Assembly: GCA_963818645.1 (NCBI GenBank)
Contig: CAWFTF010000024.1
Coordinates: forward strand, 61,493 to 125,492
Reading direction: 5' to 3'
DNA length: 64,000 nucleotides
DNA from: an uncultured Acidobacteriota bacterium
GTDB lineage: Bacteria > Acidobacteriota > Vicinamibacteria > Vicinamibacterales > UBA2999
In this document: positions 26,788 to 36,714 of the stretch, piece after piece
How positions within the stretch are numbered: position 1 is the first letter of the stretch
Layout: the number at the start of each line of letters is the position of its first letter
Made by a program: the position numbers and the translations under genes
The notes under the pieces: model-generated
Told to the model about the DNA's origin: nothing
The model's database searches: none
Seen by the model: only the letters and a program-made list of their open reading frames with translations

Positions 26788-27437
26788 TTGCATTCGATCT
26801 CGACGGCACCCTCATCGATTCTCACCGCGACCTTGCAGAGTCCGCTAACCAGCTGATTTCAGAGTTGGGCGGTAATCCGCTGTCGGAAGACGCGGTTGGC
26901 GGGATGGTGGGCGGGGGAGCCGCGCTACTCGTCAAGCGCGCGCTCGACGCCGCTGGCCTCGAGCATCCAAAGGACGCGGTCGTGCGGTTTCTGGAGATCT
27001 ACGATACGCGTCTCACCAACCACACTCGCGTCTACGACGGCATCCTCGAGACTCTCAATGCTGCTCGTTCTCACGCCAGTCTCGCCGTGCTGACGAACAA
27101 GCCGCTCGCTCCGACGACGAAGCTGCTCGACGCCTTCGCGATTCGCGATCTGTTTCAAAGTGTCGTCGGCGGCGACGGTCCGTATCCGCGAAAGCCGGAT
27201 CCCGAAGGGTTGCGCGCCATCATGGCCACCGCCGGCGTGACTCCTGAACGCACGCTCATGGTCGGCGACTCGGCGGTCGACTACGAGACGGCGCTCCATG
27301 CCTCCGCTCACGCCTGCATCGTCTCCTATGGCTTCGGGTTTCGCAGCTTCAAGCGCGAACAGCTCCAGGACGGCCACTCGGTGGTCGACGATGTGAAGGG
27401 ATTGGCGAGCGTGATCGAGCGGTTTCTACTTGAATAG
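26766..27437 (+). CDS. HAD-family phosphatase (phosphoglycolate phosphatase-like)
   Basis: FDLDGTLIDS, LTNKP, KPDP and MVGDS. Confidence 0.88.
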   Translation: MGHVQSLIAFDLDGTLIDSHRDLAESANQLISELGGNPLSEDAVGGMVGGGAALLVKRALDAAGLEHPKDAVVRFLEIYDTRLTNHTRVYDGILETLNAARSHASLAVLTNKPLAPTTKLLDAFAIRDLFQSVVGGDGPYPRKPDPEGLRAIMATAGVTPERTLMVGDSAVDYETALHASAHACIVSYGFGFRSFKREQLQDGHSVVDDVKGLASVIERFLLE

Positions 27438-28907
27438 ACTGCCAAACGAGAGCGCGACGAAGAATCCGTAGAACAGTGTCATCACGACGAGCGCGACCCG
27501 GCGCCACATCGGCGGCCGCACGTGCGGCGGCAGCAGTCGAGTGTTGATGTAGAGCAGGTGCGGCGCGGCGATGACGAAGATCAGGCCGGCCACATTGGCG
27601 CCGAGTTGCAGAAGCACGATCGGCTGGGCGATGCGCATCGCGATCAGTCCCCACACGACGAGAATCGCAAGTACGGTGTAGTAAACCGCGCGAACGTCGC
27701 CGCCGCGCCATGCGCGCACGCGACGGCTTCCGGTCCAGAGAATGTCCGCAATCGCGCGCACCATCCCTTCGAGGTTGTCGAGTTGCGTCTTGAAGAGCAG
27801 CCACGCGCCGAGAAAGGCGATGATGGCTCCGACGCCTGCACCGGTCCGGGTGCCTATCGCCGACGCTAGCGCAGCGCTGATTCCCAGACCTTGAATGTTG
27901 GTGCCGCGCGGAAGGAACGTGACGTAGAGCAGCGCGGGCAGAAGCATTCCGAGGAGCGCGCCGATCCAGAAGAGACCCCATTGATCGGCCGACACCACTC
28001 GCCACCATCCGTGCCAGCGCTCCATCGATTTGGCATCGCCGGAGAACATGAAACCAGTGTGTGCGACATGCCCCTTCTCACCGGAGGCGGCTGCTGGAAT
28101 GTAGCCGGCGCGCTCGCCCATGCCGTAGCCGCGATCGCGGGCCCAGTTCGACAGCACGATGTTCACGACACCGCCCGAACCCGAGTACGCGACAAGTGCT
28201 CCGAGCAGAAAGAAGTCGGCGCCGGCTGGTAGCGGATCGAATGTCCCTGATGGCAGGTCGAAGCCGCCGAACCCGGCCACGGCTTCCAGCCACGCACTTC
28301 CGGGCACGAAGAGCAGAACGAGCACGAAGAAGCCACCGAGGATGGTGACCACGAGGATCCAGTTGAGAAGTTCGAGCGTGCGCTCGATGCGCCGGCCGAC
28401 GGTGAGGATGACGACGCAGCCGAGAAACGCCGCAACGCCGATCCCGTAGATGGCCCCGGCATCGGCAGCGACCGCCAGTCGCTTGGCGAAGAGAAAGAAG
28501 ATTGCGGCGGCGGCCGTTCCTGCCCATGCGGGCCAACCGACCTGGAGGAAGTACAGAGCCGCGTAGACCCACGCCCACAGCGTTGACGAAGGCCTCGTGC
28601 GCATGAACCCGGTGAAGACGGGCTCACCGGTCGCGAGTGTGTAGCGCATCACCTCGGTGTTGAAAATCGTCTGGAGCGTGACGGCAACGATGACCACCCA
28701 CATCAGCGACAAACCGTGCTGCACGAATGCCGCCGGGCCAAGGAGAAACTCGCCGCTCCCGATCGACACGCCGAGCGCGATCACGCCAGGGCCGACGGCG
28801 CCGATCCATTCGAGCCCGCGGGGTCTGGGTGGTTCTGGGAGGTCTGCCGCTTGCCATGGATCGAGTCCGGATCGCGCCTCGACCGGCGTCGGTGAAGGAA
28901 GTGTCAA
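27426..28907 (-). CDS. Nramp-like (APC superfamily) transporter
   Basis: GPGVIALGVSIGSGE, RYTLATGE and multiple TM segments; no DPGN motif seen. Confidence 0.7.
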   Translation of the reverse strand: MTLPSPTPVEARSGLDPWQAADLPEPPRPRGLEWIGAVGPGVIALGVSIGSGEFLLGPAAFVQHGLSLMWVVIVAVTLQTIFNTEVMRYTLATGEPVFTGFMRTRPSSTLWAWVYAALYFLQVGWPAWAGTAAAAIFFLFAKRLAVAADAGAIYGIGVAAFLGCVVILTVGRRIERTLELLNWILVVTILGGFFVLVLLFVPGSAWLEAVAGFGGFDLPSGTFDPLPAGADFFLLGALVAYSGSGGVVNIVLSNWARDRGYGMGERAGYIPAAASGEKGHVAHTGFMFSGDAKSMERWHGWWRVVSADQWGLFWIGALLGMLLPALLYVTFLPRGTNIQGLGISAALASAIGTRTGAGVGAIIAFLGAWLLFKTQLDNLEGMVRAIADILWTGSRRVRAWRGGDVRAVYYTVLAILVVWGLIAMRIAQPIVLLQLGANVAGLIFVIAAPHLLYINTRLLPPHVRPPMWRRVALVVMTLFYGFFVALSFGSLFK

Positions 28908-31511: not shown

Positions 31512-32705
31512 TTAGAGAGACCTAAGGAACGCGAGCAGCGCGGCGCGATCGCTGTCGGCCGCGCGTTCGTATCCCCGCCGCGACAGTTCCGCCTCGTTCC
31601 CGTGACGACCGATCGAGTCCTCGAGGGTCGCCGCCGATCCATCGTGCAGGTAGGGCCTGCGGAAGCGAAGCCCCCAGAGTGCCGGTGTGCGAATCTCCTC
31701 CGGTGCCGCCACGCCCTGCGCGATGCCATCGCCCGTCCCAATGTCGTGCAGCAGGAGATCCGAGAAGAGTGGGACCTGGCGGTGATGGAAGAGCGGATTG
31801 CCGCTCGGCCCGGTTTGCAGCGACGGTGTGTGGCATGCGGCGCAGCCGATTGCACCGAACACCTGTTCGCCGAGACGCGCCGATTCGCCGACCGGACCAC
31901 GAGCGACGGGCGCCAGGAACTTCATGAAGCTGGCAAAGTTGTCGATGCCGCGACGACCGGTGCGCGGATCGCGTTTGTCCTCGATATCTGGAATCAGATC
32001 GCACAGCCGCATGCGATCGCCCGTGACGCCTACGGCGAGCTCCTGCGAGAACAGTTCGTTGGTGATGCCCATCTCGTTGCGGTAGGCGTCTGCGCCGAAC
32101 GTGAGCAGTGTAGCGTGCTGCGCCTTCCATCCGAATCGTCCGACGCGCCGTTCGCCGGTTGCGACATCGACGACGATGGCCGCGCGGCCGCTGACGCCGT
32201 CGCGATTGCGATCGACAGGATCTTCGAGCGCGAGCAGTGATTCGTCAGGAATCGCCTCGACGAGACCCGCACCGAAGAGCGGGATCGGCACGCGTCGCGC
32301 AAACACTGTGGCGTCGGCGGGGACCTGAGGCTGGCACGAGTGGCTGGGCACAGAGAACAAATGGAACAGCGTTTCGCCCGAGGGATCGAGCGCGACGAAC
32401 TCGCCGCGCGGACCTCGCTTGGCGGCGCGCACTTCGGCGATGTGCCCGGTACCTCCGACCGCCGGGACGCTGTGACATGCGCCACAGCTCGTGCCGTTAT
32501 AGGCCGGGCCCAATCCCTCGTCTGAAGTCTCGACTTCGAGAAAGTCGTCGAGACCAATTCGAAACTCTTCGAACTCCACCGGTGTCACGCCCGCTAATGG
32601 GTCGCCAGGCACGCCTCCTGGTGTTTGCGCGACGAGCAGACCGCTGAGCAGGACGATCGTGGCAACCGTGGTAGTCCGGCGCGATCCGGACACTGCACTC
32701 GACAT
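31512..32705 (-). CDS. exported di-heme oxidoreductase (DHOR / cytochrome c peroxidase-like)
   Basis: Two CxxCH motifs (CGACH, CAACH), GRFGWKA, SDLLLHD and RTPALWGL..YLHDG. Confidence 0.85.
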   Translation of the reverse strand: MSSAVSGSRRTTTVATIVLLSGLLVAQTPGGVPGDPLAGVTPVEFEEFRIGLDDFLEVETSDEGLGPAYNGTSCGACHSVPAVGGTGHIAEVRAAKRGPRGEFVALDPSGETLFHLFSVPSHSCQPQVPADATVFARRVPIPLFGAGLVEAIPDESLLALEDPVDRNRDGVSGRAAIVVDVATGERRVGRFGWKAQHATLLTFGADAYRNEMGITNELFSQELAVGVTGDRMRLCDLIPDIEDKRDPRTGRRGIDNFASFMKFLAPVARGPVGESARLGEQVFGAIGCAACHTPSLQTGPSGNPLFHHRQVPLFSDLLLHDIGTGDGIAQGVAAPEEIRTPALWGLRFRRPYLHDGSAATLEDSIGRHGNEAELSRRGYERAADSDRAALLAFLRSL

Positions 32706-32714
32706 GGAGGACCT

Positions 32715-33068
32715 CTATTCGGCGGCGATGATGACGCCGCGCATGAACGAGTGACCGGCGCCGCACAACCTGGAGCACTGGAACTCGTAACGGCCTGCTG
32801 TGGGCTGGAATGTGACCGACGCAATACCGCGTCCTCGCTTGGGCAACTCGAGATTGATGTCGGTGCCCACGATGTGGAAGCCGTGCATCGTGTCTTCGCT
32901 CGTCAGGCGAATCTCGAGCTTCGTTCCCGCTTTGACGCGAATCTCGGACGGGTTGAAGCTGAAACGCTCGGCGCTGATCTCGATGACCTGCGCATCCTGG
33001 GCATCTACCCGGCTGGCCGAACCTGCTGCAGTGACGAGAAGTACGAATGACAGGAGGGCATGTCGCAT
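32715..33068 (-). CDS. exported cupredoxin with a CuA-type site
   Basis: Signal peptide; HGF ... CSRLCGAGHSFM. Confidence 0.85.
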   Translation of the reverse strand: MRHALLSFVLLVTAAGSASRVDAQDAQVIEISAERFSFNPSEIRVKAGTKLEIRLTSEDTMHGFHIVGTDINLELPKRGRGIASVTFQPTAGRYEFQCSRLCGAGHSFMRGVIIAAE

Positions 33069-34840
33069 CAGAACCACCATCCCAGGCCGATGTTGACCGA
33101 GTTCGGCGCCTGAATCACCGTGCTGCGATTTCCCACGATCGAGTAGTCGAACTTCACGGCGACGTCGGGATCGGGCCAGTACGTTGCGCCAACAACCCAC
33201 GCGTCGCGGTCGAACTCCGGAAGGCCAACATAACCCGTGGGCATTCGGAACTGCGTGTCGAAGTTCTCGTACCTGGCGAACGTGCCGATCTCGCCGAACC
33301 GCGGATGTGAGATCACTCGATAACCAGCCTCACCGTAGAAGCCACGCAGCACCCGCGCGACGTTCGGGTTGACGCCAACGCGAATCGCGAGGGCATCGTT
33401 CAAGCGTCCCGCGTTGTCGAGCCACACCTGCGAGAACTGCCCGCGCAGCTCCAGTTGACGGCGCGAGTAGCGGGCATCGAACTCCGCGAGCGAGACAGGA
33501 ACATCGAAGACCGGCTGGAACTGGAATCCCGACTTGCCGGACCATCCGCTTGCCCCCAGCGTCAGCCCGCGAATCGCGACGTATTCGAGTCGTCCTGTCA
33601 CACCGGGCTTGCTGACGTTTGCCTCAGAGCCTTTCTGTCGGCCTTCGCGGATGCCTTCCTCGGCGGTGAACTCACCGGCGTCGAGTGGCGCGACGACGTA
33701 CACGCGATATCGCCACCCCCGGCCGACCTCGCCATGCACGCCCGCGCCGACCTCGAACCAGGTCGTCGGGATGATGAACGTGTCGTTGAAGGGGCGCTCG
33801 ACGCCGTAGTAGACCGGCGGCTCGTGGCGTTCGTTGATGATGCCGATTGGCATGAGCAGCATCCCCGCGCGGACGTTGAACGAGCGGGAGAGCAGGAAGT
33901 CGACGTACGCCTGTTCCAGTTCGAGCTCGCCTTTCTCCTCGAGACCCTCGACCACGGCATGTTCGAGCTCGAGCTCGCCGACGAAGCGAATGCGTTCGGA
34001 GAAGTTGTGCGTGACGAGCAGGACGAATCGATGGAAGTCCAGTTGCGCGTCGCTGAACTCGGGGTTGTTGAAATGGAAGTCCATGTAACCCGAGAGCGCC
34101 GTGCGTGGCTGCTCGGCTCGCGGCGTCGCCTGTGCCCACACTGGCGACGAGAGCAGAACGAGGAGCAACACATGCACCGCCTGCACGAGCAGCTTGGACG
34201 CGGCCTTCGTCCCGATCGTCAGCCTGCGATTGTTGCTGCGCCGGACGCGAACGCTATCGGCTGCGGGATCGCGCTCCTCGACCGAGATCGCCTCGCCCGG
34301 CTTCAGATTGTGGTGCTCGATGAAGCGCAGGAAGTCTTTGTCCTGATCGATGATGCGCGTGACGGTGACCTTGGTGTCGAGTGGGCACGTCAGCAGCGTC
34401 TGGAGCTTCTGCGGCTTGACGAGGCCTTCGGCGTTGGGAATTGGATCGCCGTGCGGGTCGGTCTCTGGCCTGCCCAGCATCGCGTCCATTCGATCGACGA
34501 ATCGATCGCTGACGGTGTGCTCGAGTTGTTCGGCCTCGTCGTGCACTTCGTCCCACGAGTAGCCCATCACCTGCACCAGGAAGAGCTCGATCAGGCGATG
34601 ACGACGCGTGACGAGTGCGGCGAGTTTCTGTCCGGCCTTGGTCAGTGCCACGCCAGCGTAGGGCTCGTATTCCACGAGCCCCGACTCCGCCAGCGTCTTG
34701 ACCATCGTCGTCGCCGTGCCGGGCGTGACGTTGAGGGCGGTGGCCAGCTGGCCCATCGGCAGCAGCCGCTGTGGAGGCTCCAGGCTGTTCGTGCCGATGT
34801 ATATGGCTTTGAGGTAGTTCTCGACGGTGCTCGACGGCAT
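33068..34840 (-). CDS. DtxR/MntR-family metalloregulator fused to an outer-membrane beta-barrel (porin-like)
   Basis: ENYLKAIY, RRHRLIELFL, EAEQLEH, DPHGDPIP and FeoA domain; then VLLLVLLSSPVWAQ and an amphipathic beta-rich region ending LGWWF. Confidence 0.8.
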   Translation of the reverse strand: MPSSTVENYLKAIYIGTNSLEPPQRLLPMGQLATALNVTPGTATTMVKTLAESGLVEYEPYAGVALTKAGQKLAALVTRRHRLIELFLVQVMGYSWDEVHDEAEQLEHTVSDRFVDRMDAMLGRPETDPHGDPIPNAEGLVKPQKLQTLLTCPLDTKVTVTRIIDQDKDFLRFIEHHNLKPGEAISVEERDPAADSVRVRRSNNRRLTIGTKAASKLLVQAVHVLLLVLLSSPVWAQATPRAEQPRTALSGYMDFHFNNPEFSDAQLDFHRFVLLVTHNFSERIRFVGELELEHAVVEGLEEKGELELEQAYVDFLLSRSFNVRAGMLLMPIGIINERHEPPVYYGVERPFNDTFIIPTTWFEVGAGVHGEVGRGWRYRVYVVAPLDAGEFTAEEGIREGRQKGSEANVSKPGVTGRLEYVAIRGLTLGASGWSGKSGFQFQPVFDVPVSLAEFDARYSRRQLELRGQFSQVWLDNAGRLNDALAIRVGVNPNVARVLRGFYGEAGYRVISHPRFGEIGTFARYENFDTQFRMPTGYVGLPEFDRDAWVVGATYWPDPDVAVKFDYSIVGNRSTVIQAPNSVNIGLGWWF

Positions 34841-34881
34841 TTGACTCGAGTGTAATTTGACTTTTGACAGAGAACAATATA

Positions 34882-34901
34882 ATTTTTGACTAATCAAAAA
34901 T
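34882..34901. promoter_or_regulatory. palindromic operator, likely for the adjacent MntR/DtxR
   Basis: ATTTTTGA-CTAA-TCAAAAAT next to TATAAT (34878-34883) in the divergent gap. Confidence 0.65.
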
Positions 34902-34918
34902 GACGGACGCGAGCCGAA

Positions 34919-36268
34919 ATGGAAGGTGAGGCCCCGGTTTCAGCGGCCCCGCAGGCTGGCTGGCGAAGTGTCCCCGACGCCCCGAGCCTGCGCGAGGTGC
35001 ACGGGTCGATCGCCGTGCCGCGGGACGCCGGGTTCTGGCGGAAGCTGTTTGCGTTTGCAGGGCCGGGCTATCTGGTGGCCGTCGGCTACATGGACCCGGG
35101 CAACTGGGCGACCGACCTGGCAGGTGGCGCGCGCTACGGCTACACCCTTCTCAGCGTCATCCTGATCTCGAACATGATGGCGATCCTGCTGCAGGCGCTG
35201 GCCGTGCGCCTCGGGATTGCCAGTGGACGCGACCTCGCCCAGGCCTGCCGCGACAGCTATTCGAAGCCCGTCACGATCGTGCTCTGGGTGCTCTGCGAGA
35301 TTGCGATTGCTGCGTGCGATCTGGCGGAGGTCATCGGTGCCGCCATTGCGCTGAACCTGCTCTTCGGACTGCCGCTCATCTGGGGTGTTTCACTCACCGC
35401 GCTTGACGTCCTGCTGATTCTCTTCCTGCAGCATCGCGGCTTCCGATACGTGGAAGCCCTCGTCGTTGGGCTGATCGTCGCGATTGCCGGATCCTTCGCG
35501 ATTGAGATCTTCTTCGCACGTCCTGATCCGGGCGCGCTCGTTGCTGGCTTCATCCCGCGACCGGAGATCATCACCAACCCGGAGATGCTCTACATCGCGC
35601 TCGGCATCCTCGGCGCGACGGTGATGCCGCACAACCTGTATCTGCACTCGTCCATCGTCCAGACCCGGCGATACGAGGACACGGTGGCGAGCAAGAAGGA
35701 AGCGATCCGGTTCGCGACGCTCGACTCGTCGATCGCGCTGATGTCGGCGCTCTTCATCAACGCGGCGATCCTGATCGTGTCGGCGGCGGTGTTCCACGGC
35801 ACGGAGTACGAATCGGTCGCCGACATCGGCGATGCGCACAAGCTCCTGTCACCACTCCTTGGCACCGGCGCGGCGGGAGTCCTGTTCGCTGTAGCGCTCT
35901 TGTGCTCAGGGCAGAACGCGACGTTGACCGGCACGCTCGCCGGTCAGATTGTCATGGAGGGCTTCGTCAACATCCGCCTGCGGCCATGGTTGCGGCGTCT
36001 CATCACACGCCTCGTGGCCATCGTCCCGGCGATTATCGTCGTCAGCCTGTATGGCGAGCGCGGCACTGGTGCCCTCCTGATCCTCAGCCAGGTCATCCTG
36101 AGCCTGCAGCTGCCGTTCGCGGTGTTCCCTCTGGTCAGCTTCACGAGCGACAAGGCCAAGATGGGTGTGTTCGTCGCGCCCGGCTGGGTGCGCGCGCTCG
36201 CGTGGACGATCGCCGTTATCATTGCTGCGCTGAACGTCTGGCTGCTCTATCAGACGTTTCTCGGATAG
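34919..36268 (+). CDS. mntH: Nramp Mn2+/Fe2+ transporter
   Basis: [29 protein letters not shown] and [11 protein letters not shown]. Confidence 0.95.
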
Positions 36269-36291: not shown

Positions 36292-36714
36292 ATGTATCGA
36301 AGGATCCTCGTTGCCGTTGAGAACTCTCTGGCAGACAAGACAATCCTTGCGCACGTCCGTCAGCTCGCCACGCTGACGAAGGCGGAGATTCTGCTCGTGC
36401 ACGTTGCCGATGGCTGGGCGGCGCGCAACTTCGATCAGCTGAAATTGCGGGAATCTGAAGAGATGAAGGCCGATCGCGCCTACCTGGAGCGAATCGCGTC
36501 CGAGCTCACCGCGGACTCACTGACGGTGCAGTGTGAACTCGCGATGGGCGACCCGGCCAACGAGTTGATCAGGCTCGCAGAGGAGCGCAACGTCGATCTC
36601 ATCGCGATGTCCACGCACGGGCATCGCTTCTTCAACGATCTGTTGCGAGGAACGACGGTGAGCAAAGTCCGTCACTTCGTGAAGATCCCGGTGCTTCTGC
36701 TTCGAGCTCAATAA
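36292..36714 (+). CDS. universal stress protein
   Basis: YRRILVAV, GDPA..L, DLIAMSTHG and IPVLL. Confidence 0.9.
   Translation: MYRRILVAVENSLADKTILAHVRQLATLTKAEILLVHVADGWAARNFDQLKLRESEEMKADRAYLERIASELTADSLTVQCELAMGDPANELIRLAEERNVDLIAMSTHGHRFFNDLLRGTTVSKVRHFVKIPVLLLRAQ

Follow-up and report, generated by a model that had tools for sequence, protein, structure and literature searches.

A DtxR/MntR-type repressor joined in frame to an outer-membrane porin through an internal signal-like segment in Acidobacteriota

In the window (the whole 64,000-nucleotide stretch of DNA analyzed here, from an uncultured Acidobacteriota bacterium), one open reading frame of 590 aa joins a DtxR/MntR-type repressor, an internal signal-like segment and an outer-membrane porin (positions 33068 to 34840, minus strand). 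We confirmed that this fusion is real and conserved and is not an artifact. Its carriers are a group of soil Acidobacteria, and related genomes swap the channel behind the same repressor-plus-signal module. Judged by sequence, the module carries three unrelated cargos, each of which is in, or resembles, an outer-membrane barrel family. We propose that the product is probably a polyprotein that is exported by its internal signal and cut there by signal peptidase I.

A continuous frame and its two halves

The frame starts with ATG (34840 to 34838), ends with TGA (33070 to 33068) and has no internal stop. Three Pfam families above cut-off mark the repressor: the DtxR N-terminal winged-HTH DNA-binding domain (aa 3 to 64; 34649 to 34834, minus strand; PF01325, E = 4.7e-12), the metal-binding/dimerization domain (aa 67 to 136; 34433 to 34642, minus; PF02742, E = 2e-31) with conserved putative ligands, and the FeoA/SH3-like domain that is optional in such repressors (aa 148 to 220; 34181 to 34399, minus; PF04023, E = 3.5e-10; also aligned to PDB 5zr4). 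The last FeoA strand, KLLV, abuts or overlaps the internal Sec/SPase I-type signal (K216 to A236; 34133 to 34195, minus), which was recognized by its sequence features. Residues 216 to 237 read KLLVQAVHVLLLVLLSSPVWA↓Q, and the junction reads TKAASKLLVQAVHVLLLVLLSSPVWA↓QATPRAEQ, where the arrow marks the predicted cut VWA↓Q237. Beyond it lies the predicted mature porin (354 aa; 33071 to 34132, minus), assigned as a 16-stranded beta-barrel by AlphaFold2 (AF2), Foldseek and atlas clusters and ending in WWF. The initial annotation had likewise described a complete DtxR protein (HTH, metal/dimer and FeoA domains) running into a signal-like segment and a porin-like domain with a terminal Phe.

The initial annotation had also noted that no stop lies near the junction, that both alternative frames run on without a stop for more than 450 nt past it, and that an indel artifact was unlikely. 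Indeed, the last stops of the two alternative frames are at 34221 and 34256 and the next ones at 33600 and 33674. When the junction (34130 to 34200) was inspected as the annotation had suggested, DNA contigs from three public runs of different studies spanned it entirely: run X3 (33817 to 34360, 0 differences), run X4 (33800 to 35000, 8 differences, gap-free) and run X14 (33765 to 34592, 2 differences, both at third codon positions and read as synonymous). A contig of run X8 covered most of it (33817 to 34200). These runs were used in place of the top two DNA runs, since the best-matching ones could include the source sample. Contigs from the RNA libraries X15 and X18 also cross the junction without gaps; DNA may be present in such libraries. 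The bridging contigs and the unbroken frame in relatives led us to reject a sequencing or assembly artifact.

The repressor half looks intact by sequence, and both halves look functional. Its model matches the Mn-dependent repressor 5zr6 (TM 0.83), and it has the domains and fold of the three-domain DtxR/MntR repressors (PDB 5zr4/5zr6, SloR 5cvi and ScaR 3hrs; E = 6e-42), with which it also shares putative ligands and an adjacent mntH gene. Whereas those repressors are soluble and have about 215 to 230 aa, the fusion has 590. We checked 15 positions in 55 fused rows, with metal-ligand roles that we presume from ScaR/MntR; 14 were invariant or T/S-conservative. Residues E7, H81, E85, E107, H108, D128, H130 and D165 were invariant in fused and free rows, and E104 was Asp in two TonB fusions and one free row. 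The NCBIfam MntR models all scored below cut-off (best NF047407, 173.6 bits against 350; three others likewise). The fusion was the sole DtxR found in the genome (G000, 91.7% complete), which also has two Fur-family genes. The neighboring mntH and the closest structures point to Mn2+ as the probable signal metal.

The barrel, refolded with a deeper alignment, had 16 strands (pLDDT 90.3, AF2), and its sequence falls with Porin_O_P-like clusters in the atlas. Foldseek matched the model to OmpU/OmpC-type porins (E = 4e-14, TM 0.6 to 0.7). The Porin_O_P match at aa 252 to 337 scored 24 bits against a cut-off of 20.9; PF07396 covered 85 of 370 positions, barely above cut-off, and OprP ranked 46th by structure, below general porins. 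Compared with OmpU, OmpC and OprP/O, the window's porin has the same 16-stranded fold, a weak Porin_O_P match and a C-terminal aromatic residue, at 10 to 18% identity to solved porins. Such porins are made with N-terminal signals. A manganese porin has a precedent in B. japonicum, namely MnoP (PMC6011978).

We found the unbroken repressor-porin frame in 10 of 24 other genomes of the genus (65 to 89% identity; 3 of the 10 cut by contig ends). Close relatives with a stop after the FeoA domain were named by the initial annotation as evidence that would count against the fusion; these 10 run straight through. In one of the 24 (G004) the fusion is present with frameshifts, in two a stop and about 150 nt separate dtxR from the porin, and two gave no match. 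The search in independent genomes that the annotation had called for also returned protein matches, the best 120 of 4304 covering 95 to 100% of the query at 78 to 97% identity. All of these 120 end in WWF, and in 111 of the 115 among them that fit a strict pattern, Gln follows 21 residues past Lys.

The nearest named loci among the matches listed belong to Vicinamibacterales, Acidobacteriota. Among 80 named loci, mostly unfused genes from outside the order, 2 were fused, both from Acidobacteriota; in other phyla, most homologues run no more than a few residues past or short of where FeoA ends, at a KLLV-like strand. Within the order, 213 of 301 genomes drawn have a match, and most listed matches end at FeoA. 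The unpublished genomes G323 and G345 enter tallies such as this one and no other claim. Fusions occurred in eight family codes (f1, f2, f3, f5, f8, f13, f16 and f19) among 50 loci examined, a set that gives no prevalence figure, 20 having been picked because their match extended into or near the signal. The fusion is dispensable, since many relatives keep dtxR and porin as separate genes. The barrels escape notice in databases, where the named fusions are annotated solely as Mn-dependent regulators.

Several loci showed other arrangements. L018, L021, L113, L127 and L159 contain fusions with frameshifts near or after the junction, which could be assembly errors or decaying copies. Near dtxR in L137, L138, L140 and L105 lies a second DPHGDPIP-containing ORF with a FeoA-like domain at its end, a DtxR-related paralogue, and in L137 a 9-nt tandem repeat (tagaacccg-like) starts at the dtxR stop codon. 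In P0268 (383 aa), DtxR is fused to a second DtxR-like repressor domain instead of a barrel.

The internal signal and its exchangeable cargos

To describe the internal segment, 50 junctions were gathered by pattern, of which 47 remained after removal of two frameshifted ones and of L031, whose junction equals that of L005; L153, L154 and L156 escaped the pattern and are uncounted. The 47 are related and were picked for reaching into the signal, so they are neither independent nor a prevalence estimate. The distance from Lys to Gln was 20 to 23 residues in all of them, position -1 was Ala in 46 and position -3 was Ala or Val in 38. Since a small residue ahead of Gln was part of the search pattern, conservation at -1/+1 is partly due to selection, hydropathy and distance being less affected. 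The best 8-residue hydropathy was at least 2.46 (mean, 3.23), compared with at most 2.13 (mean, 0.16) in the same stretch after 27 unfused dtxR genes. Across the 47 junctions, the signal-like segment is thus conserved in length and chemistry as far as can be read from the sequences: a hydrophobic core of about 10 residues is followed by a conserved small-x-Ala↓Gln.

These are hallmarks of a Sec/SPase I signal. The segment at residues 216 to 236 differs from an ordinary signal in lacking the N-terminal position and the short basic n-region. The free porins of L012, L014 and L015 have ordinary N-terminal signals with an Arg-rich n-region; fused porins have none, and the FeoA residue Lys216 stands at the matching distance. 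A similar geometry is seen in unfused TonB-receptor homologues: 97 of 112 have the same A↓Q site, and in 88 of 94 the distance from the last basic residue to Q is 17 to 22. If FeoA is kept folded, just 16 residues without a charged n-region precede the cut, which is short; should K216 serve as n-region, the final strand of FeoA would have to detach from its sheet. The full-length AlphaFold model has pLDDT below 50 over residues 211 to 366, junction included, and is uninformative on signal placement.

Three cargos follow this module: the porin, a PF13557-like protein and a TonB-dependent receptor. The second, of about 250 aa and beginning PFEITDNSFLVEEAFNQE, is fused to the repressor-signal unit in many genomes. 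Its Pfam scores against PF13557, which we take to be an outer-membrane barrel family, are mostly weak, with two above cut-off, and 27 of 30 atlas matches fall in the PF13557-like set. The third is a complete TonB-dependent receptor, seen in P0158 (951 aa, 3 contigs) and P0271 (952 aa; 67% identical to P0158 over the searched region), both of which come only from Logan assemblies. Further long fused proteins among the 50%-cluster representatives (e.g., P0125) included many frameshifted or chimeric fragments and were not counted as new cargos.

The predicted cut site coincides with the point at which cargos change. The porin-bearing L009 and L022, which carries the second cargo, are sister genes (100/99 support); before the predicted cut they agree at 226 of 238 residues (95%), beyond it at 17%, and their DNA alignment breaks at the Gln codon. 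The L009 cargo is closer to the free porin of L015 (80% identity) than to the window's porin (63%). Furthermore, the porin-bearing repressors do not form one clade (p-AU = 5e-8), in a test on 31 of the 96 rows of the large tree that was run after the first tree had been seen. The large tree, made by a quick method, is poorly resolved, including on a single origin of the module, and L011 is in neither tree. Since the sister genes are alike up to the cut and unrelated beyond it, and the porin-bearing repressors are not monophyletic, the signal travels with the repressor. By this comparison the cargo is swapped at the predicted cut site, and the porin was attached to the module at least twice. 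The repressor-signal-porin polyprotein proposed by the initial annotation is supported; the two further unrelated barrel cargos lay beyond the single sequence on which it was based.

Predicted export and alternative readings

In the reading that we favor, the single chain would enter the Sec channel at the internal signal, and signal peptidase I, whose gene is present in the genome, would cut between A236 and Q237. The repressor would fold and stay in the cytoplasm, acting as an oversized functional n-region, and the porin would proceed to the outer membrane by means of its C-terminal WWF. A signal remnant of 16 to 21 residues would at first anchor the repressor in the inner membrane, and later trimming might set it free. 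Trimming of this hydrophobic tail is possible given an SppA-like gene and an M50 match in the genome; the latter (PF02163) is split over two frames, and the RseP model TIGR00054 gave weak partial matches alone. The M50 (RseP-like) match lies at G000:C12:190100-190571 (minus strand), and its two reading frames may reflect an assembly indel or a split gene. Both a membrane-tethered repressor and a 1:1 repressor-to-porin stoichiometry would follow from this route. The split by signal peptidase, already put forward in the initial annotation, is the best supported reading, in view of the conserved segment, the linker of about 9 residues and the exchange of cargo at the cut.

If the last FeoA strand (K216 to V219) doubled as the start of the signal, metal loading of the repressor, which involves the FeoA residue D165, could decide whether the signal is exposed to Sec, and hence whether the barrel is released. 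We regard such a metal-gated export cassette as doubtful. If it existed, a transcription factor would control, posttranslationally, the biogenesis of whichever barrel sits behind it.

The porin could instead be a second in-frame product, started within the junction and equipped with an ordinary N-terminal signal. The window's copy has GTG/TTG codons at -18, -15, -13 and -12, the last of which, a TTG, is preceded by an SD-like stretch (-9.1 kcal/mol). In 47 of 50 junctions, ATG or a near-cognate codon (ATC, ATT or CTG) stands at the Ile before GTRAASK; initiation at that point is conceivable and would yield a normal signal of 28 to 29 residues. That Ile, however, is a FeoA residue present also in unfused genes, and the TTG start would leave a 12-residue uncharged signal. 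A candidate start with an SD at -6 or better occurred in just 6 of 47 junctions, the window's copy included, and at varying positions. SD use is weak in this genome (-6 or better at 23% of 363 real starts and 12% of internal codons), so that absence of an SD is of little meaning and it is the codon test that counts. In-frame ATG, GTG and TTG are absent from -35 to -12 in 10 of the 47 junctions; GTG makes up 0.43 of Val codons against a background of 0.40, and TTG makes up 6.0% of Leu codons against 6.1%. The GTG/TTG restart considered in the initial annotation is thus not conserved, and as the full-length chain would still be produced and need processing, we hold an internal start to be unlikely. 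It is also quite improbable that a cytoplasmic or membrane protease cuts first, between FeoA and the hydrophobic segment, to give a soluble repressor and an ordinary pre-porin. The genome has genes for SppA-like and M50-family proteases, and a precedent exists in YtgC-YtgR, where an unidentified protease frees a DtxR-type repressor from its fusion with a transporter (PMC5599777). Against such a cut, FeoA and the hydrophobic core adjoin without a linker or a conserved site, the residues after KLLV vary, and many members would be left with a signal that has no basic residue.

One-component regulators of the ToxR/CadC type, in which a cytoplasmic DNA-binding domain is anchored by one membrane helix, are common (for ToxR, PMC7496328). 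An uncut chain might act like one of these, or as a trans-envelope sensor, with its barrel near the inner membrane. The junction core, however, has only about 10 residues and runs into the conserved small-x-Ala↓Gln, and unrelated, exchangeable cargos argue against signaling through the junction. In the model, the first barrel strand starts about 9 residues after Gln237, and from the geometry of the envelope a chain with this linker would be unable to reach from the inner to the outer membrane uncut; we consider this reading very unlikely. Least to be expected is a programmed frameshift near the FeoA end that yields free repressor from the same mRNA, as is reportedly known from copA/copZ. A +1-frame stop within 15 codons occurred in 26 of 47 junctions, compared with an expectation of 20.0 ± 2.8 under synonymous resampling (P = 0.023, with no correction for kinship or codon-pair bias). 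These stops are scattered over 13 positions, however, occur in 2 of 11 porin-type junctions and are absent from the window. A -1-frame stop within 15 codons was seen in 1 of 47, the junctions contained no slippery heptamer of the form tested, and a frameshift would leave porin export unexplained.

Gene neighborhood and relation to known systems

Divergent from the fusion lies mntH, for an Nramp Mn2+ importer (34919 to 36268, plus strand; NF001923, 641 bits against a cut-off of 430). Between the two genes is a palindromic candidate operator, TTTTGA-N4-TCAAAA (TTTTGACTAATCAAAA; 34884 to 34899), the only match with at most 1 mismatch in the window and in the genome. The palindrome recurs upstream of many dtxR orthologues and, with at most 2 mismatches, upstream of 7 of 32 porin loci scanned. 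In the processing scheme that we prefer, the repressor would bind Mn2+ and this box, which would shut off mntH and possibly its own operon; mntH is likely a target of the repressor. A promoter scan of the fusion-mntH intergenic region gave nothing above thresholds. By eye, TATAAT lies on the plus strand directly before the palindrome (34878 to 34883, in the stretch 34841 to 34918), and TTGTTC-17-TACACT on the minus strand, below the scan thresholds, ends 8 nt before the fusion ATG. The placement of the latter suggests a nearly leaderless fusion mRNA. Directly after mntH is a gene for a universal stress protein (36292 to 36714, plus strand), also seen in several related loci.

Downstream, the fusion stop overlaps the start (TGATG) of a gene for an exported cupredoxin (32715 to 33068, minus strand; PF13473, PF00116), which has its own N-terminal signal and a C-x3-C-x3-H-x2-M motif that we take to be of CuA type. 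It is followed by an exported di-heme oxidoreductase (DHOR; 31512 to 32705, minus; PF06537, E = 2e-45), which is likely the third gene of one operon with the fusion and the cupredoxin. The order porin-cupredoxin-DHOR is conserved across Acidobacteriota. This unit often neighbors an unfused dtxR, and thus the fusion likely joined a regulator to a gene already under its control. The unit, which often comes with the palindromic candidate operator, may serve metal redox reactions or metal uptake in the periplasm. Farther downstream, about 2.6 kb past DHOR, lies an ORF for a multi-pass membrane protein of 493 aa (27426 to 28907, minus).

If our reading is true, the fusion is a naturally occurring example of a cytoplasmic transcription factor, folded and 220 residues long, in front of the cleavable signal peptide of an outer-membrane protein. 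It bears on whether Sec and signal peptidase I can handle a signal that follows a folded, dimerizing domain, on whether a repressor held on the membrane by a signal remnant can still work, and on how amounts are reconciled when a low-copy regulator and a channel are synthesized one-for-one. In addition, three uncharacterized barrel types become candidate entry routes for manganese or other metals in an abundant, mostly uncultured soil order. A full-text literature search, covering titles and abstract openings and with subscription literature mostly outside its scope, returned no published description of a repressor-barrel fusion.

Two known systems come close. FbcH of Bradyrhizobium japonicum is said to be a single gene whose cytochrome b/c1 polyprotein is separated at an internal signal-like segment, both products reportedly being inner-membrane subunits of one complex. 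The fusion likewise is one ORF with an internal signal-like segment between two complete proteins; of its predicted products, in contrast, one is a transcription factor of the cytoplasm and the other a protein of the outer membrane, and its cargo is exchangeable. In Chlamydia trachomatis YtgC-YtgR, a DtxR-family repressor that regulates metal uptake genes forms the C-terminal part of a chain that begins with a metal-transport protein, an inner-membrane ABC permease, and an unidentified protease frees it (PMC5599777). The same source cites a membrane-anchored LacI, a precedent for a tethered repressor. In the fusion the order is opposite and there is no permease domain: the repressor is N-terminal to its partner, an outer-membrane barrel, and signal peptidase I is predicted to cut on the periplasmic side. 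By analogy, the fusion would work like FbcH and YtgC-YtgR but belongs to neither, as its order, compartments and exchangeable cargo differ.
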